From the NCBI GenBank assembly GCA_016748015.1, contig JAAOMT010000226.1:124001-188000 (forward strand): 64,000 bases of DNA, read 5' to 3'. The notes beneath the pieces are model-generated. The model was not told the origin of the DNA. It did not search any database and worked only from the letters and a program-made list of their open reading frames with translations. Positions 3,734 to 48,619 of this stretch are shown piece after piece. Numbering within the stretch: the first letter of the stretch is position 1; every line of letters starts with the position of its first letter. This stretch comes from Geosiphon pyriformis uo1. Lineage: Eukaryota; Fungi; Glomeromycota. A program made the position numbers and the translations under genes.

Positions 3734-6700
3734 TTAGATTTGTCTCATTTGTGACAGTCCGTCAGCATTTCCATTGTCTTTTCTTTTTTTATAATGTACT
3801 GTATAATTAAATGATGAAAGTTCTATTTTCTATCTGGCATGACAATTGTTTGCAAATTCTTGTTTCTGAATTGAAGTCAATTCTTTGTGGTTAGTATACA
3901 CATCAAACTTTTGACTCAAGTATTCCTTCCATTTGATAACAGTCCAATAAATAGCTAAGTGTTCTAGTGCTGGAGTTTCATAGTTCTTTTCAGCTGGACT
4001 TAAGCTTCTACTGGCATAAGCTACTGGATGTTCTTTTCCATTGGGTTTTTTTTGTGAGAGTACTGCTCCCAATGCTTGGCTTAATGCATCAGTGGTAATT
4101 ATAAATAGTTTGCTGTGGTCTGGATACATCAATACTGGAGTTTGGATAAGCTTTTTTCTTAATATATCAAAAGCTTTTTGTTGAGTTTTTGTTCATTCAT
4201 ACTTCATATTCTTTGTTTGGAGTTGGTATAATGGTTGAGCTATTTTGGAAAAGTTCTTAATGAAGCAGTGATAGTATCTGGCAAATCCCAAGAATGCTCT
4301 CAATTCTGTAAGATTATTTGGTACTGGAAAGTTCTTAACAATCTCAATCTTGTCTGGATCTGTTTTTATTCTATCTTTGCTCACCACATGTCCCAAAAAC
4401 TTGAGTTCAATTTTTCCAAAGAAACATTTGGTCACATTTAGCTTTAGTCCAGCTCTTCTTAATCTTTCAAACACTTGTTGAAGATGATACAAATAATCAT
4501 CAAATGTTTTTGAGAATACATTGGTGTCATCCAAGTATACAACTACTGATTTCTATAGTAATCCAGTATAGACAATTTCTATGAGCTGTTGGAATATTGC
4601 TGGAGTGTTCATCAAGCCAAATGGCATGACTTTAAATTCAAAATTTCTCTTTTTTGTGATAAATGCTGTTTTCTCTTTGTCGGCTGGATTTATGACTACT
4701 TGCCAGTAACTACTATCTAAATCCAGTGTTGAGAATCATTTATTTCCTCCAAAAGCATCAAATTCTTGAATCTTTGGAGTTGGATAGCTATCACCTTTAG
4801 TCACTCCATTCAGTTTCTGATAATCCACACAGAAACAGATCTTTCTATTTTTCTTCTGGACTAGTACTACTGGTAATGACTATGGGCTCATTAATGGCTG
4901 AATTAGTCTGTTGTTAAGCATTTGGTTAATTTCTTGATGAATGATCTCATGGCTAGCTGGTGGTACTCTGTATGCTCTTTGTTTAATTGACATTGCATTT
5001 CCAGTTTTGATCTGATGCTGGATGATGTTGGTTCAACCAAATTCATTTTTGATCGCAAAAATGTTATTGAAATTGTTGAGTAACATTTTTAGTTGTATTT
5101 GTTGAAGTGGGTCTAGATTCCCCATGTTTATCTGTTCCAATTGTTTTGGTTGGAGCAGATAACATTCACTTCATCTATAGATGGTTTGTGATGTGATGTC
5201 CACATATCCACAAAGTTGTGGAAAATCTGAAACGTGGTTTGGTGGTTGATCCTCAACTTGAGTGACTAAATATTCAATAATAGTTCCTTTTGGTATTTCG
5301 ATGACTTTTTCAGTTGCTTTATAAATGGGAATTTTGATGTTTTTGGGGTTTTTGGCTGATATGTAGAGATTAGTAAGTCCAATCTCTCCTAATTCACAAA
5401 TGGTGGCTTCTGCTTTAAACAATTAAGCTTAATCCTTTACTTTTCTTTTTATGGCTAACATATACTGGTCATATGATGGAATGGAAATTAATTGATGGGT
5501 TGAGATAATTTCTCTTTTGTCAACAATTTTTTTCTCTGCCATATTGACTGATATGTCTATTCTACTCATTGATTCAAATCTCTGTATCCTCTTGCTGTTA
5601 TACCTAATTTTTCTCTTTTTTCCACTGAAACTAACTGAGCTATTTTTACCAGAGGTAAGAATATTGTCTGTGCTATCTTTTCATTTGGCTTTATAATATA
5701 GGTCTTTTCTGAGTCATTTTGTAGCATGGCAATGATATTTCCTATGTATTCTATATCAATTATTCTTCCTTTGATGTTGATTTTTTTTTTCGCTAAACTA
5801 CTTTTAGATGCTAATTGGACTATAGTTATTGCTAGAATTTTCAGAGCTATTTTGAAATCAATACATGTGTGTGAATTTGGTTCCAATTTGATGGCTTCTT
5901 TTCCTGGATATCTCAGATCAAACCCTATATCAGTATTATGTGTGCATTCTGACATGATACCTTCATTATTATTACTATACCATTTAAGTTCCTGCTCCTT
6001 AGAGAGATCAGGAAGTGCAATGTATATTTTGAGATTGAAATCAGAGTTTAAATTATTAATATTTTCATTGCTATATTGCGCAGAGCTAAAACAGGTGTTT
6101 TCATCATTGTCATTGTCAAAGTTTGAATCGGGATTGAAAACTGATTCCGATTCTATTATGCAGCTGCTAATTGGTTCTTCTTCTGAGATCGTGTAGATCA
6201 TGCATAGTGGTGAATTATAAATGAGGTCACACTCATTACAATATTGAAAGTCATAAGGAATTAAGCAATGTTGACATAACTGAGTATTCAACTGCTTCAA
6301 ACGCTGCTTTTGTTCTTCCCTGGTAGATGCTAGCTCTTAATAATGTTCATGGAATTGTTCTGGATCTAGAAAATTTATGACTGGTTCTGGGTTCCAGTCA
6401 AGTTTTATAGGTTCAGATAGGTTATTTTTAATCGTTTTTATTTCTTCTGGAGTCACTTCTTCAATTTTGACAAGTACCATTTGCCAGATTTCATCATCAT
6501 CATGTGGGCATCTGTCCAGACATTTGATGGCTCATCTCCAAACAGCATCTATGGGCATTTTTTTTTACCCAGTTGCTTATAAGAATCGTGTATTGACATG
6601 ATTTGTTACATGTTCCTTCTCAACCAGGAATGTCATTCCATATTTTTTCGTCCAAAAGAGTTTCTCCACAAGCCAAGCAGGGTTTGTTATCCCATTTTTC

Positions 6701-7202
6701 TACTCATTTTGGTCTTTTAAAACATTCAAGGACACATAGGCGACAATAGAATTTGGTTGCTGAAGTATACTCCTCATTGTCACTACAGCAAGCACCCATT
6801 GATGACAATTTCTTACTGCAATTGACACACACCAGTTTTGGATGATGATAAGTAGATTGTTGTGGTGTAGTGTAGGAATTATATGTGGTGGTGTTGGTAG
6901 ATATTAATCCTTTTTCTTTTTTCTTTCTTTTTTTTTTTGTCTTTTCTTTCCATTCTTAAGTTGGTTCTTCTGAGTCGTAGTTGGTTTCCCAGTTTTGGTT
7001 GGCATTCTAGGTAAGTTTTTTTTTCTGCTTTCCTTTGCTGTTGTCATCCCATGAAGGTACTGGCAGCAGCTTATTGTATTCTGTGTCAGCCCAGAAAACT
7101 TGATAGACTTCTCAGGTAGGTTTTTTTTCTTCTTTCTTGAATTCGATGAGTGGTGTTGTCGAGTTAGTGGTCTTGAAATAACCACACATGGCTAATACAT
7201 AT
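3734..7202 (-). pseudogene. A pol: Cys-rich module, dUTPase (~5560-5940), RT, RNase H
   Basis: LCQHCLIP; GFDLRYP..SKSSLA..GRIIDIEYIG..IAQ; YLDD; TTDALSQALGAVLSQ..PVAYASR. Confidence 0.9.
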
Positions 7203-8204
7203 TGTTACCAGAGGTTTTTGGTCTCTTTTTTTAAATGTTGTTAATGTTGATTTGCTGTGAATTCACATTTTCAGGAAGTAGTTGGACCTTTAGTAACTGA
7301 ATTTATCTTCAAATTATCTCCTATAATTTGAATTACTGGGCTTATAAGTGGAATAGCCAATTCTTTGCCAGTTACTTTATGTAGTTATGTTGTAGTAAAC
7401 GTCAACTTTTTCTCAGGAATTGCTCATCTGGAAGCTCATTAAAAATGTGTAGTTACTTTGCTGTGAAAGTCAACTCTTCTACAAAAATCTCATTTGTAGG
7501 CTACTCTAATGATTATAATAAGAAAATAAAAGAAATGTAAAAGAAATTGAATTCTGTAAAGGGAAACGTTTTCTATCCAGGCCTGGAGTCACTAACAGTT
7601 TACTGAAATTGGTAGCTAATCAATTTCAAAATGTTAATTGTGTTTTGGAGGTTTTCCAAGTGCAATAATTTAAGGAATTTGGTTTTTTGAATTATTTGAT
7701 ATTTTATTTCTTTTTTGTGTGTAGGAATAGTTCTAAGTAATAAATCTAAAGTAAGATACATTTTCTTGAAAAAAAAAGCTCTTCTTTAATACAACTTGTT
7801 GTAATACTAGTCTATGGACTTGTACTTTTTCTCTTTGCTTAAATTTTGGTGAACTAAAGATACATTTTAATGAACTACAAATTATTTCGCTGAATTATTG
7901 ATTAATTTGGGTGAACTATTCATAATTTTGGTGAATTTTTATAAATTTTGGCGAATTTCTTATAAATTTCGGCAAATTTCTGTAAATTTTGGCAAATTTT
8001 AGAATGTTACAAAGTTCAGGGTATTGTATAATTTGATCATTCTACTTTCTGTCATACTAATTGAATTATTTAATTGAATTGTGATATGTGATAATTGATT
8101 AAATAATAAGTAATAATTTGAAATAATATTAATATACTAATTAATTTATAGAAATTATAAGAGTAATTTTATGCTAATTGATAGCTAAAATTCTACTGGT
8201 AACA
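7203..8204 (-). repeat. 3' LTR of B
   Basis: TGTTACC...GGTAACA; contains a ~20-bp AATTTTGGCGAATTT array at ~7840-8000. Confidence 0.93.
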
Positions 8205-8900
8205 TAATCTCCTCCTCAAGACTGAGCTCCGTCAAAGTCCAAGCACTATCTGTGATATTGAAATAGTGATCCAAAATAATTGAAGTAATCTGATCTGAAA
8301 ATTGTTGAAATTTCAGTTTTGTGAGTTTGCCAATGTATTGGATTTTTATTGGTTGCAGTATTGGATTTTGTAGAACATTTTCACAAGTATTAAACAAATT
8401 ATAAAGTCTAAAAGCTGCTCTAAGTTTGTAGTGAGTATTTGTTAGTCCAGCTGCTGTTTTAAATTCATTGTGAATTTGTTTTTGTATAGCTTCAGGAGTG
8501 AGATTTGTTGCTTCAAGTTCCAGTTTTTGTTCATAAAGTGTCTTTCCAATGTGAAAGTATTTATAGATAGGGGTGTGTTCATTGTTTTGTTTATTGAGAA
8601 GTAGTAGAAGTTTTTGTTACATTGTAGCATTCGGTAAAATGTCAATAGGGACAATTAAAAAATTTTCTTCCAGTGCTTGCTTCAAAAATCTTGGTAACCT
8701 ATTTTCAGAGTGACTTCTTGTTTTTCTTCTATAGGGGTGATAGTTCTGTGGATGATTTACTACTGGGGCTGTGGTTTTTTTCTAAATATAATTAATTTGA
8801 CTTCCATTAATTGTTATGAATAAGTCAGGAAGTGTTTTCAAGGCTAACATTAACTTTTGGGATATTTGTTAAATATTTTAGGGAATAATAATGATAAAAT
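8185..8900 (-). pseudogene. ORF3 of B
   Basis: Frame reads ITINGSQI...YKYFHIGK...RAAFRLYNLF...IGKLTKLKFQQFSDQITSIILD, which aligns with ORF3 of C/E; start uncertain. Confidence 0.7.
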
Positions 8901-9018
8901 TGACTAATTATGAAAAAGGAGAATAAAGAAAATTATTTTTGGGTATGAGGTTTTTATTTTTTTTATTTTTATTTTTTTTTTGTGTAATTATTTTTTTATT
9001 AAAAAATTATTGTAAAAT

Positions 9019-10346
9019 TTAAGTGTTCAAGTTTGGTTGTTGTTCTATTATAATTATTGGTTCTAAATTTCGGGGAATATCTTTAGGATTAATTAAAGAA
9101 GAATGTGTATCAATTTGTGGAATTAATAGTTCAGGATTGTTTTTGGAATAATAGTGTTTCAATCTGTCTCCATGTGCAACTTTTGCTAGTATTTTGTCAT
9201 CAAATCTTAACTTGTATGATCCATTGCCTAGAATTTCATGGATATAAAATGGTCCATTCCATTGTTTTTCAGCCTTAGTTCTGTATAAGAGAACTTTATT
9301 TTCAACTTTAAATTCGTTGGTAATGGGTGGTAATTTGTTGTCATGTCTTTCTTTTTGTTGAGCTTGAGAATGTTCAATATGAGTTGCTGCTATTCTTTTT
9401 TTTTCTTCCAGTGTACTAAAAAGAGTGTAGGCCCTTTTTTAGAGTGTTTCTTAAAAGTTCTCTTCATTAATTGGTTGCACAGAGTATGTTTCTACTATAA
9501 AATTAATTGGTAATGTTGCTGTTCTTCCATAAATTAAATCAAATGGTGTGTGTTTTGTAGTATCTTGTTTTAGTGTTCTGTATACTAGTAACACTAATGG
9601 AATAAAGATATCTCATTCCTGCTCAAAATCTGTTGAGACTTTGGCTAGAGATTCATACAATGTTCTGTTGAAATGTTCTACAAGTCCATTTGTTTGAGAG
9701 TGATAAGGTAATGATAGAGGTCTTTTGATATTGAATTATTCACAAATTTTTTGTATCAAGTTGTTCACAAAATGTGTTCCTTGATCAGATAAAAGTTCAA
9801 TTGGGCATTCATGTCTACAAATAATGTCTTCATAAATGAAATTTACTACTGATTTTGCATCTGTTTTTTGGATGGCTCTAGCTTCAGGCTATTTGATTTC
9901 CTTGGATTGTGATAGGTAATAGTCTGACTAAATCAATTCCAACTTTGTCAAAAGGTTGTCCAACTTTGATTGGTTTTAAAGGTTCTGTGGGGCAAGTTCC
10001 TCCTCTTTTTTGACAACTATCACAAGATTCTATATATTGTTGAATGTTTTTTGCATGTGAGGCCAAAAATAATGTTCAAGAGTTCTTTGAATTATTCCAT
10101 CTCTTCCCAAGTATGCTGAAAACGGATTTGTGTACAGTTATATAAAATTGTTTCTTTTTCATTCTCTTGTACTAATCTGAGTGATTGGTTTGGATTTTTG
10201 TGATTTTTATAATAGATTTTGTTATGGTGTATAAAATATTGCTTTGATTGGTGTTGTAAATAATGTTTTTTACTTGGAGACCAATTCTCTGACATGGTAA
10301 GAGTCTCCAAATAGTTTTTAAGATTGCTGTAGTTTCTGGGATCCAT
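9019..10346 (-). pseudogene. Integrase of B
   Basis: MDPRNYSNLKNYL; CDSCQ; LLSDQGTHF; GPFYI; tail NLEPIIIIEQ. Confidence 0.88.
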
Positions 10347-10403
10347 TGTTGTTTGGTTATTTTGTTGGTAGGTTGGTAAGTTATGATGGAATTGTTGTTG
10401 GTG

Positions 10404-12075
10404 TTAGGCTTGTTTCATTCTTAAGAGGCTATCAACATTGGTGTGTAGTTTTCTTGGTTTGTAATATACAATATATCTGTAGTCTGCTAGGAAGTCATTC
10501 CATTAAGACTGTTTGTCACTTTGTTCAGTTTTCTTTTTATTAAGCCATTTGAGGCCAATATTGTCAGTTATTATGTCAAATTCTTTTCCATTCTTCAGGT
10601 ATTGTTAAAAGTGTTTGAGAGCCCAGATGACTGCAGTGGCTTCCAATTCAGTTGAGCCATATTTGAGTTCTGTTGGCTTGAGTGTTCTACTGGCATAAAC
10701 AATAATTTGTTCCTGGCCATTTTCATTCAATTGTGATAAAATGGCACCAAATGCTATGTGTGAAGCATCAATAGCTAATTGAAACCATTTGTTAAAGTCT
10801 GAATAAGCAAGAATTAGGGCTGTTGTCAATTTTGTTTTGAGAGTTTCAAAAGCTTTTTGTTGTTCTTCAGTCCATTTGTATGACACGTTTTTGTTGGTAA
10901 AATAATTGAGTGGTTTGGCAATTTCTGAGAATCCTTTTATGAATTTTCAATAGTAAGAGGCTAATCCTATAAATCCTCTTAGTTCTGTAGTATTTTTGGG
11001 GGTTTAAAAGTTTTTGACAGCACTGATTGTTCCTGGATTTGGTTTGACTCCATCTTTACTAACTATGTGTCCAAGAAAAATCAAGCTTGTTTTTTCAAAG
11101 TGACATTTCTCAATGTTTAACTTTAATTCTGCTTTCCATAATCATTGAAAAACTTCTTGCAGGTGAATAAGGTGGGCTTCAAAGCTTGGTGAGTATATAT
11201 CAATATCATCAAGATAGACAATTATTGATTGCCATAAGAGCCCTTCATATACAACATCTATGAGTCACTGAAATGTTGTTAGTGCATTGCAGAGTTCAAA
11301 AGGCATAACATTAAACTCATAGTTTCCTTCTTGAGTGGTGAATGCTGTTTTGGGTCTATCTTTTGGGTCCATTTCGACTTGCCAGTATCCACTTTCCAGG
11401 TCTAAAGTTGAGAAGAACTTGGCTTTTCCTAGAGCATCTAGCATGTCATCAATTCTTAGAAGAGAGTAGACATCTCCAATTGTAACACTATTCAGTTGTC
11501 TATAATCAACACAAAATCTGATTTTTCCGTTTTTCTTTTTAATTAAAACTACTAGTGAGACCCAAAAACTTCTTGATGGTTGAATCAATCCATTATTGAA
11601 CATTCTTTGGACCTCTTCTCTAATGAATTGGTGGCTGGCAGGTGGCACTTAATAAGCTTGTTGACGTTTTGGTGGAGCATCTTCTGTATGATTTTGATGT
11701 TAAACAATATCCATTTTTCCCAAGTCATTGTTGTCTTTTGCAAATATATCTGCAAATTCAGCTATCAATTGTTTCAATTGTCTTTGTTGTTGAAGTTCTA
11801 AGGAATCCATGTTGATTTGAGAGAGTTTTTCTTCTAAAATGTGGTAGTTTTCAGTAGTGGAAATAATATTTGGATTTGGGAGTAGAGTGTGCTTTACAAT
11901 TTCGATGAAATTAGAGACAATTTGAGAGTTTTTATCTTGAAAGATATTGCTGTGTATAATTCTAATTTCTAATTTGTTTAATAAGACAATAGGGTAATTA
12001 TTGGGGTTGTAGAATATAACTTGAAATTTTTTCATTCTTTTGGGAATATAAACGTTTGGAATTGATATTTCATGC
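10404..12075 (-). pseudogene. B RT-RNase H
   Basis: RFCVDYRQLN, LDLESGYWQV, YLDD, AIDASHIAFGAILSQ. Confidence 0.9.
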
Positions 12076-12974
12076 TGTTATTCATAGAATATAGGAAATA
12101 TATTATTATTAGCAAGTAGATATTAGCCAATCAGAAATAGATGTAGTAAATGTAGAATTCCAGGATTCCTCTTATTAAGAATTGCAGGATTCCAGGAATT
12201 CCAGGATTCTTGTTACAAGGAATTGAAGAATTGAGGAATTTCAAATATGTATATATAACAGTAGTATTAGAAGCAGAAAAAAAGAAAGAATTAACACCAA
12301 GAATCCTTAGCTTAGTTACCACAATCCTCAAATAAATAATTATTCACTATATTAGATTCATTCTTCATTATCAACACTTCATGTTAATAGTAAATAATAC
12401 TTAACCATACTAAAACAGTAGCTCTTGATCACAGCTATTGATGGGATACTAACTTGCAAATTGCCTTGGCTTATTTTTTATTTTTTATTTTATTTTTTCT
12501 TTATTTTCTTTGCTGTCTACTAACTTGATTAAAGAATTTACTCTTGGAGGACTTACGGAGGAATAAAACACACTTAAACAATACTTACTTTTAGAGAACT
12601 TATGGAGGAATAAAACTTACTTAACCAATACTTACTCTTGGAGGACTTATGGAAGAATAAACTTGCTTAAACAATACTTATTCTTGGAAGACTTATGGAG
12701 GAACTGACATCAGAAAACAGCACTGACATACACTTATGGAAGATATTGTATTAGGAGAATCATCAACCATCAAGCTGAGCAAGCAATTGATGAAACTACA
12801 GTTTCAGGAAACTACTAATAAACTGTTATTACTGAATCTCTGTCCATTATACAAAGAACTCAATTAGAAAACCTTTAGATAAAATACCTTCAGATTATCA
12901 TCATTATTAATTGCTTTGAGCACCAAGTTACGAGTTTATTATTTACACAACACCTCAAAGAATCACCTGTAACA
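12076..12974 (+). repeat. 5' LTR of C
   Basis: TGTTATTC...TGTAACA; TATATA ~12250; AATAAA 12331; four ~47-bp units at 12538-12703. Confidence 0.94.
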
Positions 12975-12976
12975 TT

Positions 12977-12993
12977 TGGTGCTCTCTGTGAGG
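12977..12993 (+). promoter_or_regulatory. Primer binding site of C
   Basis: TGGTGCTCTCTGTGAGG, 2 nt after the LTR; equivalents in A, D, E, F. Confidence 0.85.
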
Positions 12994-13035
12994 TATAATT
13001 CTATAGAGAACCAGTGCCAACAACATTATCCAAAC

Positions 13036-16000
13036 ATGGCAGAATCAGAAATTATAGGAGCCAACCACTTAGGATTTGCAAAATTCTTGTTTCAACAATA
13101 CAGTCAACAATTAGGATTAAACAGTAATCACTACCCAGCCAAATCAGCCTTCAACTATTACATCAATGATAAAATCACAGACTGTTTAGGAGGAACTGTT
13201 AATATTGAGTCAGCAAGAGAAAATTTTTATACAGAATTATTTCAACACACCAGCTTACCAAGAAATTACAGTTTCACCCCAATCATCAGGGAAATTAATC
13301 AAATCATTGAAAGATACATACAACAACAATTTTCCATTACCTACGCAGACAAAGGTAAAGGAAGAATACAAACACCAGCAGTGACACCAAAAAGAATACA
13401 GTTACCTGGTTGGAAGAAACACAGAGTAGAATTACCAACCACTCCATCATATCACTACATACCTGGAAGCACCATCAACATTTTATCAGTAAACATGTCC
13501 ACATTAAACATGACATTAATATTTGGAAGATTTCAGTTTCAAAGCAAACAATGGAAAGAAGACTTACTAAGACCATATGGTGCATATTTTGAAAGATTTA
13601 AATCATGATCCCTAATGCCATCAGGAATTCAATTACCAATACCCTAACCAGATTTCAGAGCTGCTACTCCATGGAAATTATTAGAGAAAGAAGAAAAAGG
13701 AAGTGAAGATCAAAGATTTACTTACCAAAACTCAATCTCAGAAAACTCGGAATTCGGAATCCCAAACATTCAAACTCTGCAAAACTCAAACATAGAAAAT
13801 CTGGAAATTAAAACTCTGAATATTAGAACTTAGCAAAATCAAAACAATCAGAACTCCAATTTAATTAATCAGCCAAACATACTTCCAAATATTGTCATCA
13901 ATCACCCACCAATTGATCCGATAGTCAAACCCATTTAGCAGCCACCTCAACAATCAAATCTGCAAATCCAACAGTCACAAGGACCACTTTAGCAACCACT
14001 ACTGCAACAACAACCACTACAGCAGCCATAACAACAACTAAACATAAACCAAATGGCCTACGCACCTATTGCCAAGTTAGAAAACTTTACTGATGAAGAA
14101 GACGACACTCAAGCATGAATCAATGACATCTCCAAGGCCATTATAGTGAACAATTGGGATGATGCCAGAGTCTTATAGACAATCCCATACTTTCTCAAAG
14201 AAACTGCCAATTCTTGGTATCAGAGTTTAGCTGCCAGATCACAAACATTCCAACAATTCAAAACTGCCTTTCTGGAATATTTTAGCAACAATAACAGTAT
14301 TAATTGTCTAGCCAATACTTTCACCACAATCAAACAGAATAATACTGAAGCAGTCACAACATACCTAGAATGCTTTCATAAAGTCCTATGCCAAATTCAA
14401 GCCATCAATGCTGTGTATTTCACAGAACCCCAAATCCTCAACCAGTTTATTTGTGGCCTGCACAGTAGCATTTTGCAACATGTACGCCCATTACACCCAG
14501 CCAACCTTCAAGCTACAATTACACATGCCAGAGATTTTGAATTAGCTGAGCTAAAAGCCAATCACACTCAAACTGTAAATTTAATAATGAATGGATCATC
14601 TGATTTGGATTCCAAATTGAAGCAAATCAGTGATATCATCAATCAGAAAATAGAGGGATACTTAGCTGACAATAGCATGATTTATCAACCTTCTCAACAG
14701 CATAACAATTAGGGAAACAGGAATTGTTTCCAAAATCAGTTACGTCCATTGTCATCATCCAATCAGCAATGGCAGCCAGAGATGCATGTTTGCCACAACT
14801 GTGGTAAACAAAGCCACATAAAAGCCAACTGCAACACTTATAACTGACAATCGGGAAATCAACATTGAAACCCTAATCACCGATTCCAAACCCTGAATCA
14901 ATATCAAAATCAAGAGCAAAATTAAAACACTTACCTGCCAATGATGCAGCAGCCAATTTATTAAGCACCAATATATCAGACTTCAGTTTATTAACCGCAG
15001 CCACCAGCAATATATCAACTGCAGCCATTCATAATATATCAACCACACCCACAAGTAATCTATCAATCTCAAACCATTCAAACACCACTCCAAAACTTAC
15101 CTCAACATGGAACCCAAAGACTGAGAATAACACAACAAAACTGAAGATTGGCGATGGTTGTCTACCAACTGATCTTCAGTTCTTCTAACTTACCATCAAG
15201 ATTACATTCTCGAAATTCGGGTACTGATACCACCCAAAATCTGAATTCCCAGAACTATTTAAGTCTTCTGGTTACCTCAGAAGACATCACACCCAACAAC
15301 CCGGAACCCAACCCAATCCAAAAACTTACCAGCAATGGTTACTGAAAATGAAACATTAGCAGCCATCTTCCTGTTTGAGTTCGAAAAAACCACCCCAGTC
15401 CTATTATTCAGTGGAACCACCCTTGAAGAAAAACTCATTACAGCAATGTATACTAATGCCAAAGTAGATGGCCACTCCATTAAATTAATCCTAGACAGTG
15501 GTTCAGCAGGCAGTATTATCATGTGACAACTCATGGACCAATTAAGTCACTGAGTTGATCGTGCTGCTAGTGCTCATATAATCACTGCTGATAGAGCAAC
15601 CAAAACTCCAATCAGTAAAATTGACAATTTCCCATTCAAAATCAATGGCATTATAATACCCATAAAAGTCTTGGTAATGAAAGCCACTTAGTATCAAGCA
15701 TTCATTGGCAATGATTGGTTATTCAAAACCAATGCAATGCTTGACTGGACCACCCAGAAACTCCAACTCAGCCAAAATGGCCAACACACACGAGTCCCAG
15801 CAACGTGTGGCCATTTCAAACTCAGCAATATTAGGACAACAACACTGCTTATCAAATTCAAGAAGGAAGAAAACAAACCAATGTGGAAAGTGTATCAAGT
15901 ATTATGGACCAAGGTTGACCACAATGAACTGCCACCAATACTTTCTTGGAATGACAACAACAACGAGAAAAGAAAACAAAGAGCAGAACTTACCTGGGAA

Positions 16001-19000
16001 ACAGATAACCTGACTTGAACCAATAATGACAAACTGACATTGAGCTGGGAATGGAAAAAAAACAAAGAAAGCAATAAAGGGAAGAGAAAAAAGAAGGAAG
16101 AAGAAACAACATTCACTAACACCACTGCTCATAACTCACACATTTATCTATTAGTACCAACTAATTATCATTGATCAAGGCTGATATGTGTTGATTGCAG
16201 CAAGAAATTGTTGTCAATGGGCGCATGCTGTGGCAACAATGAAGAATATTCAATGGCCACCAGATTCTACAGCTGCGCATACATCATAAAACACTTTAAA
16301 AGACCAAACCAGGTGGGAAAATGGGACAATACACTATGTTTAGCTTGTGGAGAGACACTTTTGGACGAAGGAATGTGGAATGACATTCCTGGTCAAAGAA
16401 AAATATGTGATACTTTGTGCCAGTACACAATCCTTATCAGTGATTGGGTTAAGAAAAGGACATCCATAGAAGTCGTCTGGAGAAGAGCAGTATGATGATT
16501 GAAAATTTGTTTACATAACAATGATAAAATCTGGAGAATAGCCTTCACCAAAATTCAAGAAACATTATCCAAAGAAATCAAAGAAGTCAAAAACAACCCA
16601 CCAGAACCCTTAGAACTCAATTGGGACAAAGAACTAGTCATAAATCTCTTGGAACCAAAAGAGTTTCATGAACATTATCAAACTTTAACACCTACAAAAG
16701 AAAAACAAGAGCAATATTTGGCCCAAATAAACACCAGACTATGTGACCACTGTTTGATTCCCTGTAACTTCCAATATTGTAATAAGTGTGACCTCATTTA
16801 CAATCCACCACCACGCATGATCTACACAATCCTAGAGGAAATTGAACCAATCAGCAGCTGTGCATCCAAATCGGAATTACTGTTCAATCTCGATTCAAAC
16901 TCTGACAATGACAATAACAAAAACACCAGTTCCAGCTCTGTTCAAATTGGCAATAGCAATGACAATGATTCCAACTCAGATTCAAACTCCGACCCATAAT
17001 ATGAACAATATATTGCACTGTCAGACTTTTCCAAAGAACAGAAGTTAAAATGGTATAGTGACAATAATGAAGATATTATGCCAGAACACACACATAATAC
17101 TGATGCTAAGTTTGATCTGTGGTATCTAAGAAAAGATGCCATCAAATTAAAACCACATTCACGCACTTACATTGATCTGAAAGTAGCATTAAAAATCTTA
17201 GCAACAACAATGGTTCAACTAGCATTTAGGAATAGTTTAGCAAAAAAAGAGATTAATATAAGAGAAGAAATAATTAACACAGAATATGTAGGAAATATCA
17301 TTGTTATGCTACAAAATGATTCTGAAGAGGCCTATATCATAGAGCCAAAGAAAAAAATAGCACAGACAATATTCCTGCCTCTGGTGAAAATAGGGAGAAA
17401 TTAGAGATAACAGCAAAAAGAATACAGGGATTTGGATCAATGAGTAGAATAGATATACCAGTCAATATGGCAGAAAAAGAAATTGTTGACCAAAGAGAAA
17501 TTATCTCAACGGGTTAAGCAATTTCCATTCCACCATATGGCCAGTACATGGTAGAGATAAAGTGGGAAATAAAAGAACAGAATCAGATTTTTGAAGCAGA
17601 ACCAACCCTTTGTGAATCAGAAGAGATTAGACTCATCAATCTCCATATACCAGCCAAAGATTACAGCCACATCAAAATTTCTATCTATAATAACACAAGA
17701 AATGTCATAGTAATATCAGCTGGAATCATCATTGGATACTTAGACACTAAAATAGAGGATCAACCACCAAGCACCATTTCAGACTTTCCACAGCTTTGTG
17801 AATATGTCAATATCACATCACAAACAATATACAGATGAAGTGAATGTTATTTGCTCCAACCAGAGCAATTGGAACAAATGAACATAGAAAACTTAGACCC
17901 ATTCCAATGTATGTAGCTTAAGATGTTGCTCAACAATTTCAACAACATTTTTGCCAACAAAAACAAGTTTGGCCGAACTGACATTATCCAGCATCAGATC
18001 AAGACTGGAGATGCAATGCCAATTAGCATACAGAGTACCACTAGCTAGCCATGAGATCATTTGTTAAGAGATAAACCGAATGCTTAACAACAGGCTAATT
18101 CAATCATCAATGAGCCCATAGTTATTACCAGTGGTACTCGTCTGGAAGAAGAATAGAAAAATCCAATTTTGTGTGGACTACAGAAAACTCAATAGTATAA
18201 CTCGTGGAGACAGCTATCCAACCCCAAGAATACAAGAATTGTTTGATGCTTTCAGTAGAAACAAATGGTTCTCAACATTAGACTTAGACAGTAGTTACTG
18301 GCAAGTAGCCATAGATTCAGCCAACAAAGAGAAGATGGCATTCACCACTAAAGAAGAGAATTTCAAATTTGAAGTAATGTCATTTGGCTTAACCAATGCT
18401 CCAGCCACTTTCCAATGGCTAATAGAAATTGTTTATACTGGCTTATTGTGGAAATCAATAGTTGTATACTTGGACAACACCAATGTATTCTCAAAAACAT
18501 TTGATGATCATCTTCATCATTTTCAACAAGTGTTCGAAAGGCTAAGAAGAGCAGAACTAAAGTTAAATACAATAAAGTGCTTCTTTGGCAAGACAGAACT
18601 AAAATTTTTGGGACACATAGTCAGCAAAGACGGCATCAAAACAGATTCAGAGAAAATAGAGATAGTAAAGAACTTTCCAGTACCAACCAATGTGACTGAA
18701 TTAAAATTATTCTTGGAATTTGCAAGCTATTATTAATGCTTTATAAAGAACTTTTCAAAGATAACTCAATCACTCAATAATCTGCAAACCAAGAATACAA
18801 AATATAAATGAACAAAAAGTCAACAAGAAGCTTTTGATATTCTGAAAAGAAAGCTCATTTAAGCTTCACTACTAATCTATTCAGATCACAACAAACCATT
18901 CATCATTATCACCAATGCATCAGGCCAAGCATTGGAAGCAGTACTATCTCAGAAGAGACCAGATGGTAGAGAACATCCAGTAGCATATGCCAGCCAAGGT

Positions 19001-19270
19001 CTAACACCAGCTGAAAAGAACTATGGAACACCAGAACTAGAACATTTAGCAATCTATTAGGCAGTTATGAAGTAAAATGAATACTTGAGCCAAAAGTTTG
19101 ATATATACACGAATCATAAAGAGTTAACATCACTTCAAAAGCAAGAATTTGATAATGGCTGCCAATTCAGATGGAAAATGGCCCTGTTACAATATACTTA
19201 TACTATACACTATAAGAAAGGAAAAAACAATGGAAATGCCAATGGTTTGTCGCAAATAAGACAAATCTAA
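13036..19270 (+). pseudogene. C gag-PR-Cys-rich-dUTPase-RT-RNase H polyprotein region
   Basis: CHNCGKQSHIKANC; LILDSGSAG (~15490); CVDC/CLAC/CDHC..C..CNKC; dUTPase ~17090-17445; YLDN (from YLDD); ends NANGLSQIRQI*. Confidence 0.92.
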
Positions 19271-19332
19271 GAATATTTCAACCCAAAAATATAACAAAAC
19301 CAGAACAATACCAACGAAAAATATAACAAAAG

Positions 19333-20715
19333 ATGAACATACAAAAATATCAACAACTTCAACATTATATAAACACTTAACAGTTTAAGAAGAATTTATT
19401 TCAAATGGAACGAAAGAGTATCAAACAACAATTAAAATATTTTATTACTCACCAAAATATACTTTATCGGAAAAATAGAAGAGATCTAGATCAACCAACC
19501 AGAGTAATTACAAAGCCAGAAAAAGAGACAATATTATTCAACATGCACTCAAATCCAACAGCAGAACACTTTCACAAAGAAGCAACCATGGAAAGAACCT
19601 GAAAAAAATACTATTGGCTATCAATGTATCCAGACATCATCCAATATGTTCAAAATTGTGATGCTTGTCAGCAAAGAGGAAGAACAAGACCCAATGAACC
19701 ATTAAGACCAATCAAAGTGGGACAACCATTCGACTGTATTGGAATTGATTTAGTCAGACCATTAACAATTACCAGCAGAGGAAACAGATACATAGTAGTA
19801 GCCATGGACTATCTCACTAAATGGCCAGAGGCAAAAGCAATTCAAAGAGCAGATGCAAAATCTATTGCCAAATTTGTTCATTAAGATTTAATTTGTCAAC
19901 ATGGATGTCCAAAAGAATTATTATCAGACCAAGGAATGCATTTTGTGAACAGAACATTAACAGAATTAAGCCAAAGATTCGGAATTAAGAGACCATTATT
20001 ATTACCATACCATCCACAAACCAACAGATTAGTCGAAAGATTTAACAGAACATTGTGTGAAGCAATAGCTAAGTTCAGCCAAGAAAACCAGAATGATTGA
20101 GATTTGTTGATACTATCAGTACTATTTGCTTATTGGACAATGAAGCAAGATACTACACAAGCAACACCATTTAAATTAGTATATAGTAAAACAGCAACAC
20201 TACCAGTGGAAATAGAAGTCAGCACATACCCAACCAAACCAATAACAGAAGAGAATTTCAAAAACACATTGTTGAAAAGAACATATGACTTAATGGAAAC
20301 ATTAGAAAACAAATGACAGAGAACAGCTGATAACATACAAAGGTCACAAGAGAAACAAAAAGAAAGACATAATAACCAACTACCAGATAAACCAGTTGAA
20401 CTCAAGATTGGAGACAAAGTACTACTACATCATACCAAAGTGGAAAAACAATGGAGTGGAAAATTTAACCCCAAATGGGACAGATCATTTCACATAGAAA
20501 AAATTCTAGGAAATGGAGCTTACAAATTAAGATTAAATAACAAAATCTTGACCAAAGTAGTACATGAAAATCGACTGAAACCATACCACCATAAAGCATC
20601 ATCATCCACCAGTAATATTCCACAACTGAGAGTACAAAGAATACTAGTCCAACCAGATAAGATTCCACAAGATCTGGAACCAATTATCATTATTGATAAC
20701 AACACATCCAATTGA
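19333..20715 (+). pseudogene. Integrase of C (own ATG)
   Basis: MNIQKYQQLQHY; H..H..CDAC; GIDLV, SDQG, VERFN; tail LEPIIIID. Confidence 0.9.
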
Positions 20716-20739
20716 TTAACAGAAAGAATATATAAAGAC

Positions 20740-21399
20740 ATGGTCGACACAATAGAAAAACACAGAAAAATAGAAATTACTGACAACATTCATTTATTAG
20801 CACAACAAATCTTTCAATTAATCCAACACCAGGAGATAGAAATTACAATTAATCAACAAACCATTTGATACAAAAGTACTACAAAAATACCACAACACAA
20901 AATACAGAGAAAACTCGAAAATGTTGTTGACAAAATCATAACCAAAATAAAATTGGCCATGAAAGAACAACAAATAGTCAGATTACACCAAGAACTTACC
21001 GAAAAAACTTGGACTTGGTGGATGCAACAATTTCCGAAAAACTATTGTTATTTTTACTTGGGACAACACGTAAATATCCAGAATTTGTACACTGACAAAA
21101 CAAAATGGTTATTTGACACAACAATACTGAGACAACTGAAACAATATGTGGGAAAGAACAATCTAACCACACAAGCTCAAGCCATTTACCAGCTATATAT
21201 GGGATTTCAGGACTAACCAGAAATCTTACTCAACACAGCAATAGATACAGTTACGAGTAATCAATTGGGAAAAATGACCAATGCCCAATTTGAAGAACTA
21301 CAAACTCAAATAACACAAGTAATACTCGAAAAAAAAGTTCAAGAAATAATTCAAGAAGAGGAATTAAAAGAGTTAGATTTTGATGGAGCTCAATATTAA
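20740..21399 (+). pseudogene. ORF3 of C (~219 codons, two premature stops)
   Basis: MVDTIEKHRKIEITD...YFYLGQH...AIYQLY...LGKMTNAQFEEL...LDFDGAQY*. Confidence 0.8.
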
Positions 21400-21412
21400 A
21401 AGGAGGGAATAA

Positions 21413-22341
21413 TGTTACTCATAGAATATAGGAAGTATATTATTATTAGCAAATAGATATTAGCCAATCAGAAGTAGATGTAGTAAATGTGGAATTCTAG
21501 GATTCTTCTCAGAGAAATTGCAGGATTCCAGGAATTTCAGGATTCTCCAGTGAAGAATTGCAGGATTCCAGAATTCCAGGATTTCTCTCATCAGGAATTG
21601 CAGGATTCTAAGAATTCCAGGATTCCTGTCACAAGAAATTGAAGAATTGAGAAATCTTAAATATGTATATATAGCAGTAGTATTAGAAGCAGAAAAAAAA
21701 AAAATTGACACCAAGAATCCTTAGCTTAGTTACCACAATTCTCAAATAAATAATTATTCACTATATCAGATTCATTCTTCACTATCAACACTTCATGTTG
21801 ATAGTAATTAATACTTAACCATACTAGAACAATAGCTCTTGATCACAGCTATTGACAGGATACTAACTTGCAAATTGCCTTGGCTTATTTCTTATTTTTT
21901 CTTTTATCTTTTCTTTATTTTCTTTGTTGTCTATTAACTTAATTAAAAGATTTACTTTTGGAGGACTTACAGAGGAATAAAATGTACTTAAACAATACTT
22001 ACTTTTGGAAGACTTATGGAGGAATAAACTTGCTTAAACAATACTTACTCTTGGAGGACTTATGGAGGAACTGACATTAGGAAACAGCATTGGCATACAC
22101 TTACGGAGGATATTGTACTAAGAGAATCATCAACTATCAAGCTGAGCAAGCAATCGACAAAACTATGGTTTCAGGAAACTACTGATAAACTGTTACCACT
22201 GAATCTCTGTCCATTATACAAAGAACTCAATTGGAAAACCTTCAGATAAAATACCTTCAGATTATCATCATCACTAATTGCTTTGAGCACCAAGTTACAG
22301 GTTTGTTATTCACATAACACCCCAAAAAATTATCTGTAATA
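21413..22341 (+). repeat. 3' LTR of C
   Basis: TGTTACTC...TGTAATA; three ~47-bp units; longer GGAATTCC array. Confidence 0.94.
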
Positions 22342-25300
22342 ATGCTTCAAACAAATTTGTTCATTGGATTCAAAGATTTGTTGGATAGTAGTGGGTTTTG
22401 AGCAAATGTAAATTTCGTGATGTTCTCCAAAAGGTGAAATAGTAACTGGTTGTGAAAGTTGAAGAATCTGGTGAGATTCATTTTGTATATTAAGGGCTAT
22501 GTTTACTGGAACTGTAAATCTCTAGTTGAACCAAAACCTTGCATTCCTCTTTCACTTTTTCCCAATTGTTCTTTATTGTTAACTGATTGTAGACTTGAAA
22601 TATTAATTAAGGGTAGGTAAATTGCTTGAGCAATTTTTTCAGCATGTTCAATCTTAAATGATTTGTCTGTTTCATTCTGCAACATGATAGTGATGTCTCT
22701 AGTGTATCCTGTATCTATAACTCCTCCTCTAATATTGATTCTTTTGCTTGCCAATGATGATCTGGAGGCAATTTGAACCATTGCTCCTGGTGGTATTTCA
22801 AGAGCAATTTTGAGATTGATTTTTGTCAAGGACTTTGGTTGGAAAACCAAAGTATCTTTTCCTGGATATCTTAGGTCATATCCAGCATTAATTTCGTGTG
22901 CTTTTTCTGGTCTGATTCCTTGGCCATAGTTGTCGAAATATTTAAGTTGTAAAGGTGGTTGCTTTTTAAGAAGATAGATAAGGATGGTTGGTATTCTTTA
23001 AAAATTTCTTGTTCTGTTTCCTCAGCCCAATTGGATGTTAATCCAAGTGCCATGTAGATTTCAGTAAGTGGCATTTCTTTCTCCTCTTCAAATTCAAATA
23101 CTGGGGCTTTTTCTGATTGTTTGTTGAAAGTACTACAAGTAGCAGGTACTATAGTGTGTTGTTCTTGGTATGAGATTTTTAATTCCTGAGTTTCCCAGTC
23201 CAAGTTTGCATTGGCTTTAAGAAGCCAATTATTTTTAACCAGAGCTTGGTATTGGGGTGCATCCATGACTAGCACTTTGACTGGAATAGTAATTCCATCA
23301 ATGGTGAATGATAAATTGTCAATTTCTCCTACTGGTGTCTTCTTCATATCATCTGCTGTAACAATTACAGTTTGGGCTGGTCTGTTAATAATTTTTTGAA
23401 GCTGTTGCATTAACTGGTAAGTGATAATACTTCCAGCTAATCCACTGTCTAGAATTAATTGGATGGGTTTTTCTTCAACTGTAGCTTCAGTATACATGGC
23501 AGTAATAGCTTTTTGTTCATTAGCTGCTACATTACTAAGTAAGAATGGTGATTCATTTACTTCAAATTCGAATGGAAATATATCTGAAAGGTTGGCGTTT
23601 TGAGCAATTTGAGCTGGTAGAATGGTATGATTGGAAGGGTTTGTTCTTGGTACTGCAGTTTTACCTTCAGAAAGTACAGTTTGTTGAAAATTCGATTCTT
23701 CAGTCATTGTTAAATAACTGGGTTGAGTGTAAAAGTAATTTGGTTTTTGCTGACCAGAATTTTGGGGAACTAATTGGTTATTTGGGTTGATTCTATTGTT
23801 GTTATTCTGAAATTGATTTTGAGATGTAAATTGGTTATGTTGAACCAATCTTCTTGCTGGTACTTGATATTGTTGAAAGAGTTGTGTCTGATATTGCTGA
23901 ATTGGTAAAGGTTGCTGATATTGTTGCTGTATTGGTTGTAGAGCTGGTTAATAGTAATTGTTTTGATTTTGGGGTCTTGGTGAATAATAAGTTGGTGGTG
24001 GAGGTTGGTAATAAGATTGTTGTGGTGAAGAATAACATTAATTACTCCTATTTTGTTGGTCTCTTTGTAATTTCCTACAATTTCGTTTCCAGTGTCCTGG
24101 AATTCCACAATAATAACAATTTTGAGATTGGTTGTTGGATGGTAATCCAAAATTGTTTTGGTTGTGTTTTTGTGGGGGTTGATATCTTTGTGGTTGTTGT
24201 TGCTGTTGTTGTTGGTTTGTGAAGTAGCTTTCAACCTTCTTTGTGAGTTGGTCTATCTTTTCTTCAGCTGCTGAACTGGTTTCTCTAATAGTTAGGTTGA
24301 CAAGTTTGGTGTGGTTTGCTTCTTCCATAGCCATTTCATAGTTCTTTACATATCTGATGGCAGTTGCTAAGTCTGCTGGAGCATGTGAGTGGACTTTCTT
24401 AATCAGTTTGTCTTTTAACCCTGCTATAAATTGGTCCAGGATCTGAGCATCAAAATAATAATTATTGGTTTCCAATTGTCGAATCCATCAAAGAAGTTTG
24501 TTGAATTTTCCAAGATAGGTCATGACAGTTTCAGATGTTTCTTGTTTGATATTGCAAAAGCAATTGCAAAGAGTAATAGAGGTGTTATTGTCAGTGAATT
24601 GTTGTAAGAAAGCATCTTTAAATGCTTGCCAGTTTTCAAATGGTTCTTCTAAGTTTTCAAACCATTTTCCTGCAGTTTTTTGGAGAAAATATGGAATTGC
24701 TTTGAGCATTCTTGCTGCATTCCAACCATTTGCATTTTTTGCTTTTTGAACTTTGTTAAGTCATTCTTGAGAACTGGTATTATTATCTTCACCAGTGAAT
24801 TTTGGAATCTTTGCAATGTAAGCAGTTGCCATTTACTCTTTGTTTTCTGTGGCTTTTTCTTGTTCTGATTCAGTTGCTTCACTTTCCAAATTTTCTGAAT
24901 GATCACTTTTGTTTTCCTGCAAGTATTCAATAATATTGGTGTTTGTTGATATGGGTTCCTGTTGTTGAGTAGGATTTCTAGGTGACTGAAAATCTTCTGG
25001 TCTGGAGAAATGGTTAAGTGGTAAATTTGGTGTTTGTGGTCAAGCAAGCGAAATTGAAAATGGTGTAATAGAAAGTGGTAATTTGACACTGGTTCTTTGT
25101 TCAGGTGTTTACAAGTGTTTGGCAGTTGTTTTTGATAGTATTGAAGTGTTTAAAGTGGTTTTTGCATGTTGTTTCACTTTTTGTTTGCCTTTGTTGCTTG
25201 TTTCTGTTTCTGATTCAAAGTCAAGAGAGTATTTAGACTGTACTGGGTATTTTTCTTCACAATACTTAATAATGTTGTAATTGAGTTCTTGAAAGTAGGT

Positions 25301-25549
25301 GGCAAGTGTTTCACTGTTAAGATCTTCAGTTTCCAATCGTGAATAGTACACTAGATTATTTTAGAGATTGCTTCTCACTTCTAAAATGTTGTAATTTCCA
25401 AGAAGATAATTGTTGATATGGTTTTCAATGTATTGGTAGAGTGTTCTTTTAACAATTTCAATTCCGTCTGGGATGTTGAATCTCTGTCTGCAATGGGTGT
25501 AAATTGACTGATAATACTCTAGAGTTGTTGTGTTTGGTGTGGTCACCAC
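22342..25549 (-). pseudogene. B gag-protease-dUTPase
   Basis: CYYCGIPGHWKRNC knuckle; LILDSGLAGS; AGYDLRYP..ASRSSLA..GGVIDTGY..IAQ..RGMQGFGST. Confidence 0.9.
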
Positions 25550-25595
25550 TTTGAAGTTTGTTGTTGCTGTGTTATTTCCGTGAAAGAGCACCAAA

Positions 25596-26587
25596 TATTA
25601 CCAGAGGTTTTTGGTCTCTTTTTTTGAATGTTGTTAATATTGATTTGCTGTGAATTCACATTTCCAGGAAGTAGTTGGATCTCCAGTAACTGAATTTATC
25701 TTCAAATTATCTCCTATAATTTGAACTACTGGGCTTATAAGTGGAATGGCCAATTCCTTGCCAGTTACTTTATGTAGTTATGTTGTAGTAAATGTCAACT
25801 CTTTCTCAGGAATTTCTTGTCTGGAAGCTCACTAAAAATGTGTAGTTACTTTGCTGTGAAAGTTAACTCTTTTACAGAAATCTTGTTTGTAGGCTACCCT
25901 AATAATTATAATAAGAAAATAAAAGAAATGTAAAAGAAATATAAAAGAAATTGAATTCTGTAAAAGGAAACGTTTTCTATTCAGGCCTGGAGTCACTAAC
26001 AGTTTACTGAAATTGGTAGCTAATCAATTTCAAAATGTTAATTGTGTTTTGGAGGTTTTTCAAGTGCAATAATTTAAAGAATTTGGTTTTTCGAATTATT
26101 TGATATTTTATTTTATTTTTTGTGTGTAGGAATAGTTCTAAGTGATAAATCTAAAGTAAGATATATTTTCTTGAAGAGAAAAGCTCTTCTTTTATATAAC
26201 TTGTTGTAGTACTAGTCTATGAACTTGCACTTTTTCTCTTTGCTCAAATTTTGGCAAACTAAAGATACATTTTAATGAACTACAAGTTATTTCACTGAAC
26301 TATTCATAATTTCGGCAAATTTTTATAAATTTTGGCGAATTTCTTATAAATTCAGTGAATTTCTGTAAATTTTGGTGAATTTTAGAATGTTACAAAGTTT
26401 AGGGTATTGTATAATTTGATCATCTTACTTTCTGTCATACTAATTGGATTATTTAATTGAATTGTGATATGTGATAATTGATTAAATAATAAGTAATAAT
26501 TTGAAATGATATTAATATACTAATTAATTTATAGAAATTATAAGGGTAATTTCATGCTAATTAATAGCTAAAATTCTACTGGTAACA
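25596..26587 (-). repeat. 5' LTR of B
   Basis: Colinear with 7203-8204; PBS adjacent. Confidence 0.93.
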
Positions 26588-47400: not shown

Positions 47401-48619
47401 TTCCTTTTTGCCCAAGAATGTTGTTCCATATTTTTTTATCGAGCAACTGTTTACTGCAAGTAAAACATAGTTCATTGTCTCATTTTCCTTGACATTTTAG
47501 ATACCTGTATTATTCTCTATAGCACAGTTTATAGTAGTAATGTGTACATGTTTAGTAGTCTTCATCTGATACTACTCAAGCTCCTATGGAAAAAAGTTTT
47601 TTTCTACAGTCTTTGTATTTGAGAGGTATGTATAGCAGTTGTGGTAGTGGCTTATAAACTGAATATGAATTTGTCCAGCCACTATTTATTTCTTTGGTGT
47701 TGATGGCTTCTTTGGTTATGTTTTCTTCTTCTCTCTTCTTTCCCTTTCTCTTGTTGTTTTCTTCTCACTTCCAAGTTGATGGTTTGTTTAAGTCATTGTC
47801 AGTTTCCCAGGCTTGGTCAGCATTCCAGGTAAGTTTTTCTTTTGTTTTCTTTTTTTATTGTTATTTCAGGAGAGTATTGGTGGTAGTTTATTATGGTTTT
47901 CTTCAGTCTATAATACTTGATAAGCTTCTCAGGTAGGTTTCTTTTCTTCTTCTTTGAACTCAATGAGCAGTGCTAACATGTTAGTGGTCTTGAAATGGCT
48001 ACACATGGCTGGTACGCTTGTGTGTTAGCCGTTTTGGCTAAGTTAAAGCTCCTACATGTTTTAATCCAACATTGTATTGGTGTTGGACAGCCAGTTATTG
48101 CCAATGAGTACTTGGTATTAAGTGGCTTTTATGATTAATATCTTAATTAGCACAATAATACTATTGACTTCTATAGGGAAGTTATCAATTTTACCAATAG
48201 GGATTTTGGTTGCCTCATCAGCAGTGATTATGCAAGTACTGACAGCACAATTAACTTGGTAACCTAATTGGTCTATGAGTTGTCATGTAATGATGCTGCC
48301 TGCTAATCTGCTATCCAGGATTAATTTAATGGTCTGTTCATTGACTTTGGCATTGATATATATTGTTATAATGGATTTTTCATTAAGTGCTGTTCTACTG
48401 AAGAATGGTGTCTCCCTTTGGGTTTCTAATTCAAATAAAAAGATGACTGCTAATGAGTTATCATTGGTAATAATTGCTGGTAGTATGTTGTTGATAAGGA
48501 GTTGGTTTTGGTTGAGTTCTGGTTTGTGGGGTGTGGTGTCTTTTGAGGTGACCAGAAGACTTAAATAGTTCTGAAAATTTGGGTTTTAAGAGTACCCAGT
48601 TTCCAAACTCTGCTGGCAT
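44492..48619 (-). pseudogene. D PR-Cys-rich-dUTPase-RT-RNase H
   Basis: LILDS(R); LCQHCLIP; VSRSSLA..GIIDIGYVG..IAQ; YLND; RNase H motifs. Confidence 0.9.

Follow-up and report, generated by a model that had tools for sequence, protein, structure and literature searches.

The stretch analysed here, called the window below, comprises 64 kb of the Geosiphon pyriformis uo1 genome (contig JAAOMT010000226.1, positions 124,001 to 188,000) and is a nest of decayed long terminal repeat (LTR) retrotransposons surrounding a few host exons. Four decayed Ty3/gypsy copies in it carry a cysteine-rich module of about 205 residues, in frame between protease and dUTPase, which is real and conserved: an accessory domain with three fingers, apparently unnamed, that belongs to a lineage of fungal gypsy elements. 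One of these copies lies in a complete element at 12076-22341 (+), which has LTRs, an ATGC target-site duplication, Gag, protease, dUTPase, reverse transcriptase (RT), RNase H and integrase; its TG...CA LTRs, the target-site duplication and the order protease-RT-RNase H-integrase are those of Ty3/gypsy. Its features are:

12076-12974 (+), 5' LTR (TG...CA), with the target-site duplication ATGC at 12072-12075 just before it
12977-12993 (+), candidate primer-binding site, a TGG... stretch immediately past the 5' LTR, proposed from sequence
14179-14712 (+), Gag capsid domain (Pfam Retrotrans_gag, E 1e-13; Ty3_capsid, E 1e-8)
near 14790-14835 (+), Gag CCHC knuckle, downstream of the capsid domain
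15446-15772 (+), aspartic protease (DSG), 61% identical in tblastn to the protease of P0239, an intact relative described below
15773-16174 (+), variable linker rich in Trp, Lys and Glu, between protease and module
16187-16282 (+), finger 1, family pattern C-x2-C-x24-C-x2-C, a predicted treble clef; last two ligands decayed here
16337-16420 (+), finger 2, C-x2-C-x19-C-x3-C, a predicted treble clef leading into a helix
16421-16741 (+), helical domain, about 105 residues with a net acidic charge, interrupted here by two stop codons at 16493-16498
16742-16789 (+), finger 3, C-x2-C-x3-C-x4-C-x2-C, with the preceding helix the most conserved part
16853-16996 (+), acidic S/N/D-rich linker, limited to this subfamily group
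17060-17450 (+), dUTPase, decayed, with a frameshift near its end (Pfam dUTPase, E 1e-11)
18017-19270 (+), RT and RNase H; the Gag-Pol frame closes at a stop common to all four copies
19333-20715 (+), integrase in its own open reading frame (ORF), with an SH3-type C-terminus and no chromodomain match
20740-21399 (+), extra ORF after the integrase (start approximate)
21413-22341 (+), 3' LTR, followed by ATGC at 22342-22345

The other copies are on the reverse strand:

6217-6844 (-), module copy with two frameshifts
46994-47611 (-), module copy of a divergent subfamily, without the CC pair
54102-54752 (-), module copy with every ligand intact; its RT-integrase block is common with the 12-22 kb element
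22994-22997 (-), internal-deletion junction at which a sister-family copy lost the whole module, normally present in that family

At the deletion junction the match to P0282 ends at residue 448 and that to P0231 restarts at residue 274; this sister copy is dead and frameshifted.

Within 16175-16999 (+), in the frame of the upstream protease and the downstream dUTPase but interrupted by in-frame stops, CxxC, CC, GKWDNTLCLAC, CxxxC, a helical stretch, CxxCxxxCxxxxCxxC and an S/N/D tract follow one another in order. An earlier note on this DNA had described a multi-CxxC module of about 200 residues in four copies and placed it outside the canonical gypsy domains. We confirmed the module in frame between protease and dUTPase, and its position outside those domains was borne out. 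No family reached the cut-off for it in scans of profile libraries including Pfam. The motifs listed in the note hold for CxxC, GKWDN..CLAC, CxxxC and CxxCxxxCxxxxCxxC, but the second CxxC is decayed in the 16-kb copy (Ser and Tyr at its two ligand sites; the 6.7-kb and 54.7-kb copies have it intact), and the CC pair is present in only 37 of the 67 stored proteins showing the site, with CI, CS, WV or WI in other subfamilies. The acidic S/N/D tract is likewise present in the 16-kb copy but missing from distant lineages, where other acidic linkers occur. On these alignments, the CC pair and the tract are lineage-specific traits.

The Cys spacing itself is kept, as had been claimed: in a set of 120 stored proteins of the family, each of 12 ligand columns is covered by 21-96 sequences, of which 90-98% have Cys there (after removal of residues from poorly aligned windows, and with many gene models omitting parts through false introns). 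A thirteenth column is Cys in 58% of 91 proteins and Ser in 30%. Where a ligand column departs from Cys, the residue is almost always Tyr, as a G-to-A change would give. The two LTRs of the element are identical at 768 of 842 aligned columns and 72 of the 74 differences are transitions, so that agreement among dead copies shows the ancestral state and not, by itself, selection. Cysteines are strongly enriched in the module, with 17 in its 215 residues against three in the other 849 in P0239, and 14 in 191 residues against 19 in the other 1827 in a metagenomic relative, L002; by these counts, the pattern is not due to chance. The LTR decay is nearly all C-to-T or G-to-A, in the contexts CT (30), CA (29), CC (9) and CG (4), and the 12-22 kb element has CpG at 0.2 of its expected frequency, a signature of neither clean repeat-induced point mutation nor CpG-only decay.

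All relatives listed with names (120 of 132 matches, and 42 of 42 in a second search) were G. pyriformis gene models, and one of these, P0042, by visual comparison repeats two ORFs of the window. When 1.84 billion representatives were searched with a profile, 433 matched at E 0.001, and the best 150 of these were viewed; among ten of these that were looked up, mostly the most divergent, nine were from Geosiphon and one was P0239 (a European Nucleotide Archive record), an uninterrupted protease-module-dUTPase-RT ORF. One motif scan of Joint Genome Institute metagenomes produced 144 pattern matches, three of which were confirmed: L002, a 2018-residue ORF running from Gag through RNase H with the module at the same position, L001, with protease and module within one ORF, and L003, a broken partial copy. 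Profile-profile comparison of L001/L002 with Geosiphon/P0239 returned a probability of 98.3 over 154 columns. The module is also found in uninterrupted ORFs of two distant metagenome lineages, with about 27% identity between them. The core common to the lineages consists of finger 1 (C-x2-C-x24(22)-C-x2-C), finger 2 (C-x2-C-x19-C-x3-C, with x20 spacing and a His in L001/L002), 96-105 helical residues and finger 3 (C-x2-C-x3-C-x4-C-x2-C). The module adjoins the upstream side of dUTPase in 62 of 68 cases, as well as in L001-L003 and P0239, across an acidic, unconserved link of 60-138 residues. Module copies of one Geosiphon subfamily (P0061, P0163-P0165, P0258) are 83-92% identical and little decayed, and are probably younger than the window copies.

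To judge from their conserved Cys pairs, the three clusters probably bind zinc. Structure models weakly suggest that fingers 1 and 2 are tandem treble-clef fingers: in both models a CxxC knuckle is combined with a second ligand pair at a helix start (pLDDT, the predicted local confidence, about 47-83; prediction only), with the helix of finger 1 at the second pair (H35-42, H36-43) and that of finger 2 after it (H81-94, H84-97). Fold and profile matches of these fingers to treble-clef fingers (LIM, GATA, TRASH/L24e) are weak. The module is neutral to acidic in charge and has no basic tail.

A chromatin reader, one of the roles that the earlier note had offered as examples, finds no support as a PHD, RING, ADD or CXXC type: the conserved ligands are arranged differently, and no such profile matched at the cut-off. 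PHD fingers have the ligand order C4HC3 with a conserved His as the fifth ligand, whereas the conserved ligands of the module are all Cys, in groups of 4+4+5, with no conserved His there and no Pfam PHD match. In the RING pattern C-x2-C...C-x(1-3)-H-x(2-3)-C/H-x2-C...C-x2-C, the would-be ligands 3 and 4 fall on the poorly conserved CC site (W or I/S elsewhere), and the only matches were to Prok-RING_4, at E 1.6 or worse. The two CxxCxxC repeats of zf-CXXC are absent from the conserved columns. An ADD domain is a GATA-like finger followed by a PHD finger; here finger 1 is at best weakly GATA-like and finger 2, with four ligands, is not a PHD finger. The CDCA7-type zf-4CXXC_R1 was suggested by an Atlas score of 0.80 for P0005 only, absent for P0239, with no Pfam PF10497 match and again with an unconserved CC site. 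LIM domains, with two zinc sites per 55-residue unit, matched one of 12 proteins over the second half of the profile at 21.6 bits, below the Pfam cut-off of 22.9 bits. GATA fingers (C-x2-C-x17/18-C-x2-C plus a basic tail) differ from the module in its spacing of 22-24 and its neutral charge. Finger 2 does fit the spacing of the TRASH/MYM (zf-FCS) pattern C-x2-C-x(19-22)-C-x3-C, which includes an F/Y-C motif, reads RYFC in L001/L002 and has an L24e-labelled chain among its weak fold rows, with no Pfam match. Nor is this a nucleocapsid (NC)-dUTPase, since the module has no CCHC knuckle and the Gag knuckle is separate, or a chromovirus, Pfam finding SH3-type domains or nothing, and no chromodomain, on the four integrase tails of the window and that of L002.

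We estimated the ratio of nonsynonymous to synonymous differences per site (pN/pS) from transversions only, which discounts the decay; six non-independent pairs were pooled, uncorrected, with finger 1 of the 47-kb copy poorly aligned and no protease in the 6-kb copy. The ratio was 0.40 in finger 1, 0.24 in finger 2, 0.35 in the helical part and 0.16 in finger 3, compared with 0.08-0.19 in the enzymes (0.08-0.14 in protease, dUTPase, RT and integrase) and 0.37 in the stretch following dUTPase, and between L001 and L002 pN was 0.21-0.31 with a saturated pS of 0.69-0.83. The module is under purifying but relaxed selection. Positive selection, which the earlier note had raised, was not seen, pN/pS being below 1 in every module sub-region at the resolution of transversion counts. 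Divergence along pol peaks at the module: finger 1, the helical part and the upstream linker have 0.14-0.23 transversions per site against 0.02-0.06 in dUTPase, RT, RNase H and integrase, so the description of the module as among the most variable regions of pol suits these parts but not finger 3 (0.03). The 16-kb and 54-kb copies differ by at most 0.007 transversions per site in each 300-base bin from 17481 to 20180, but by 0.03-0.18 over the 5' half, with the pol peak at the module; they are recombinants, with one RT-integrase block and different module versions. Among the four copies, module distances do not track LTR distances: the most similar modules are those at 6.5/16 kb and the most similar LTRs those at 42/49 kb, a pair with modules that rank among the most distant.

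The integrase has an ORF of its own in each of the four copies, as it does in the sister element and in L002. The stop in the RNase H frame is common to the four copies (19268-19335 in the 12-22 kb element, and the corresponding junctions of the others) and the sister element also has a stop there, while in the intact L002 the integrase begins in the -1 frame with an 8-base overlap (8478-8485). The module, being part of Gag-Pol, therefore cannot steer integration by a covalent link as an integrase chromodomain does.

Since retroelement polyproteins are processed within the particle by their own protease, one module would be taken up for each Gag; made in that ratio, it would be abundant in particles, freed by the element's protease either alone or joined to dUTPase. 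Because the fingers are neutral to acidic and vary fast around a constant Cys scaffold, docking to a protein suits them better than chaperoning nucleic acid, and we tentatively favour, with rather less than even confidence, a particle-borne adaptor that docks a host protein factor. The conserved and probably zinc-binding accessory module of the earlier note, which diverges fast from one subfamily to another, stands, and its host role stays our first choice, conditionally. In the predicted order of tandem treble clefs (fingers 1 and 2), helical bundle and fourth-Cys-pair finger, the fast-changing fingers 1 and 2 and the helical surface would face the host, the conserved last helix and finger 3 being structural or facing the element; the partner might be a silencing, RNA-decay or trafficking factor. 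A bolder extension, which we regard as improbable, is that this fungal gypsy clade uses the junction between protease and dUTPase as a "cargo bay" for accessory proteins delivered in the particle. The module would then be to an LTR retrotransposon what Vpr/Vpx/Vif are to lentiviruses, an exchangeable zinc adaptor disarming a host pathway of silencing or DNA uracil, and would have helped the lineage to fill about 40% of the Geosiphon genome.

The main alternative, possible if somewhat doubtful, is a module that remains joined to the dUTPase trimer and tethers it to RNA or cDNA in the particle, keeping uracil out of new DNA. Its place directly upstream of dUTPase would suit this, as would the fold rows of GATA and L24e type, since such treble clefs bind nucleic acid. 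A precedent is the uncleaved zinc-knuckle-dUTPase fusion of betaretroviruses (PMC1802613), in which the zinc-knuckle half presumably does the same. Against it, the charge is neutral to acidic, Gag carries a separate CCHC knuckle, a long and unconserved link lies between the module and dUTPase, the module diverges far faster than dUTPase, and their co-occurrence is one inherited event rather than a set of independent cases. We consider it unlikely that the module is instead an element-specific regulator, binding its own transcript or LTR for export, translation of the integrase ORF or local anti-silencing in the manner of CERV or VANC; CERV of the gypsy element Cer1 does need a Cys loop for genomic RNA export (PMC10309623), and an integrase in its own ORF needs an unusual expression route, but the module is not basic and its distances are decoupled from those of the LTRs. 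Less probable still is that the module is a piece of a host gene, once captured, or a structural spacer, and now serves just to keep the frame open: it is the most variable part of pol and one sister copy lost it by deletion, but that copy is dead, pN/pS is well below 1, the ligands persist in lineages with RT identities of about 50-64%, and no host gene was among the named matches viewed. Least credible is a chromatin reader of known class (PHD, RING, ADD, CXXC or CDCA7-type zf-4CXXC_R1) guiding insertion or reading methylated DNA. The integrase has no chromodomain, the Atlas neighbours include zf-4CXXC_R1, and arbuscular mycorrhizal fungi methylate transposable elements at CpG (10.1101/2021.03.30.436303), which is depleted in this element; however, that Atlas score is no better than chance and did not recur when the intact P0239 module was used, the unconserved CC site leaves a cross-brace without its ligands 3 and 4, Pfam gave no match to these families, and the module is not linked to the integrase.

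In PosPlaTy3-5 of Postia placenta, a fungal gypsy element, dUTPase lies between protease and RT (PMC2864245), the same place as here. For this and other dUTPase-bearing fungal Ty3/gypsy elements (Phanerochaete, Tuber Tmt1), a Cys-rich module beside dUTPase is not reported in the available text of the surveys, which are of chromodomain type, and the elements described here differ in having no chromodomain and a separate integrase ORF. Betaretroviral NC-dUTPase (M-PMV, MMTV; PMC1802613) also has a zinc-binding domain directly N-terminal to dUTPase, but that partner is a basic CCHC nucleocapsid joined by a frameshift, in contrast to a separate 200-residue C4-type module downstream of the protease with the Gag knuckle apart. 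CERV of Caenorhabditis elegans Cer1 (PMC10309623) is likewise a Cys-rich gypsy accessory protein, with a replication role; it derives mostly from an ORF region beyond pol, contains a single candidate C4 loop and is compared by function only. The VANC anti-silencing proteins of Arabidopsis MuDR (PMC13547354) are lineage-specific accessory factors facing host silencing, but belong to a DNA transposon, as MAIN-derived stand-alone genes. All three comparisons are functional analogies only. LIM, GATA, TRASH/L24e and MYM/FCS fingers share with fingers 1 and 2 a CxxC knuckle and a second Cys pair at a helix start, but the module has spacings of 22-24 and 19-20 residues, scores that stay below every family cut-off, no basic tail, and a fusion to a helical domain and a third finger.

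LTR elements make up 41.2% of the G. pyriformis genome (PMC11952901; 10.1101/2023.09.13.557621 gives further background), and their proteins seem to be undescribed. A literature search, with supplements and subscription papers outside its scope, found nothing on the module, and a term search of the available text of PMC3248453 found no mention of dUTPase or zinc-finger. That distant lineages keep an unnamed 200-residue multi-finger domain within Gag-Pol suggests a step, in replication or in counter-defence, missing from the standard gypsy model, and the intact members L002 and P0239 make it testable. A dUTPase tether, if true, would be a convergent copy of a retroviral solution; a host-factor adaptor would be a rare fungal case of a particle-borne transposon accessory protein.

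Several further features were observed around the module. The metagenome lineage has an orphan CWC-x10-CxxC domain between protease and module (L002 5240-5570, L001 852-1184), with no family at the cut-off. A short W-[AS]-[DEA] motif followed by acidic residues recurs next to the module, on its upstream side in most lineages and downstream in P0239; it was seen at 23020-23035 (-) and in the linkers of P0061, P0239, P0282, L001 and L002, and presumably resembles the WAD motifs of translation-factor tails. At 17518-17900, between dUTPase and RT, about 100 residues have no Pfam match and are absent or far shorter in L002. The extra ORF after the integrase (about 220-230 residues; window 20740-21399, L002 746-1441) ends at the polypurine tract and is highly divergent between subfamilies, and its L002 version matched no Pfam, NCBIfam or PHROGs family. 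The element, at 12072-22345 with its target-site duplications, is nested in an older sister-family element whose halves lie at 22342-25600 and 8000-12071 (-). Amid AT-rich DNA at 32300-35000 (-) are host-gene exons with a CID domain near 34.6-35.0 kb, from a gene that we take to be Pcf11-like.
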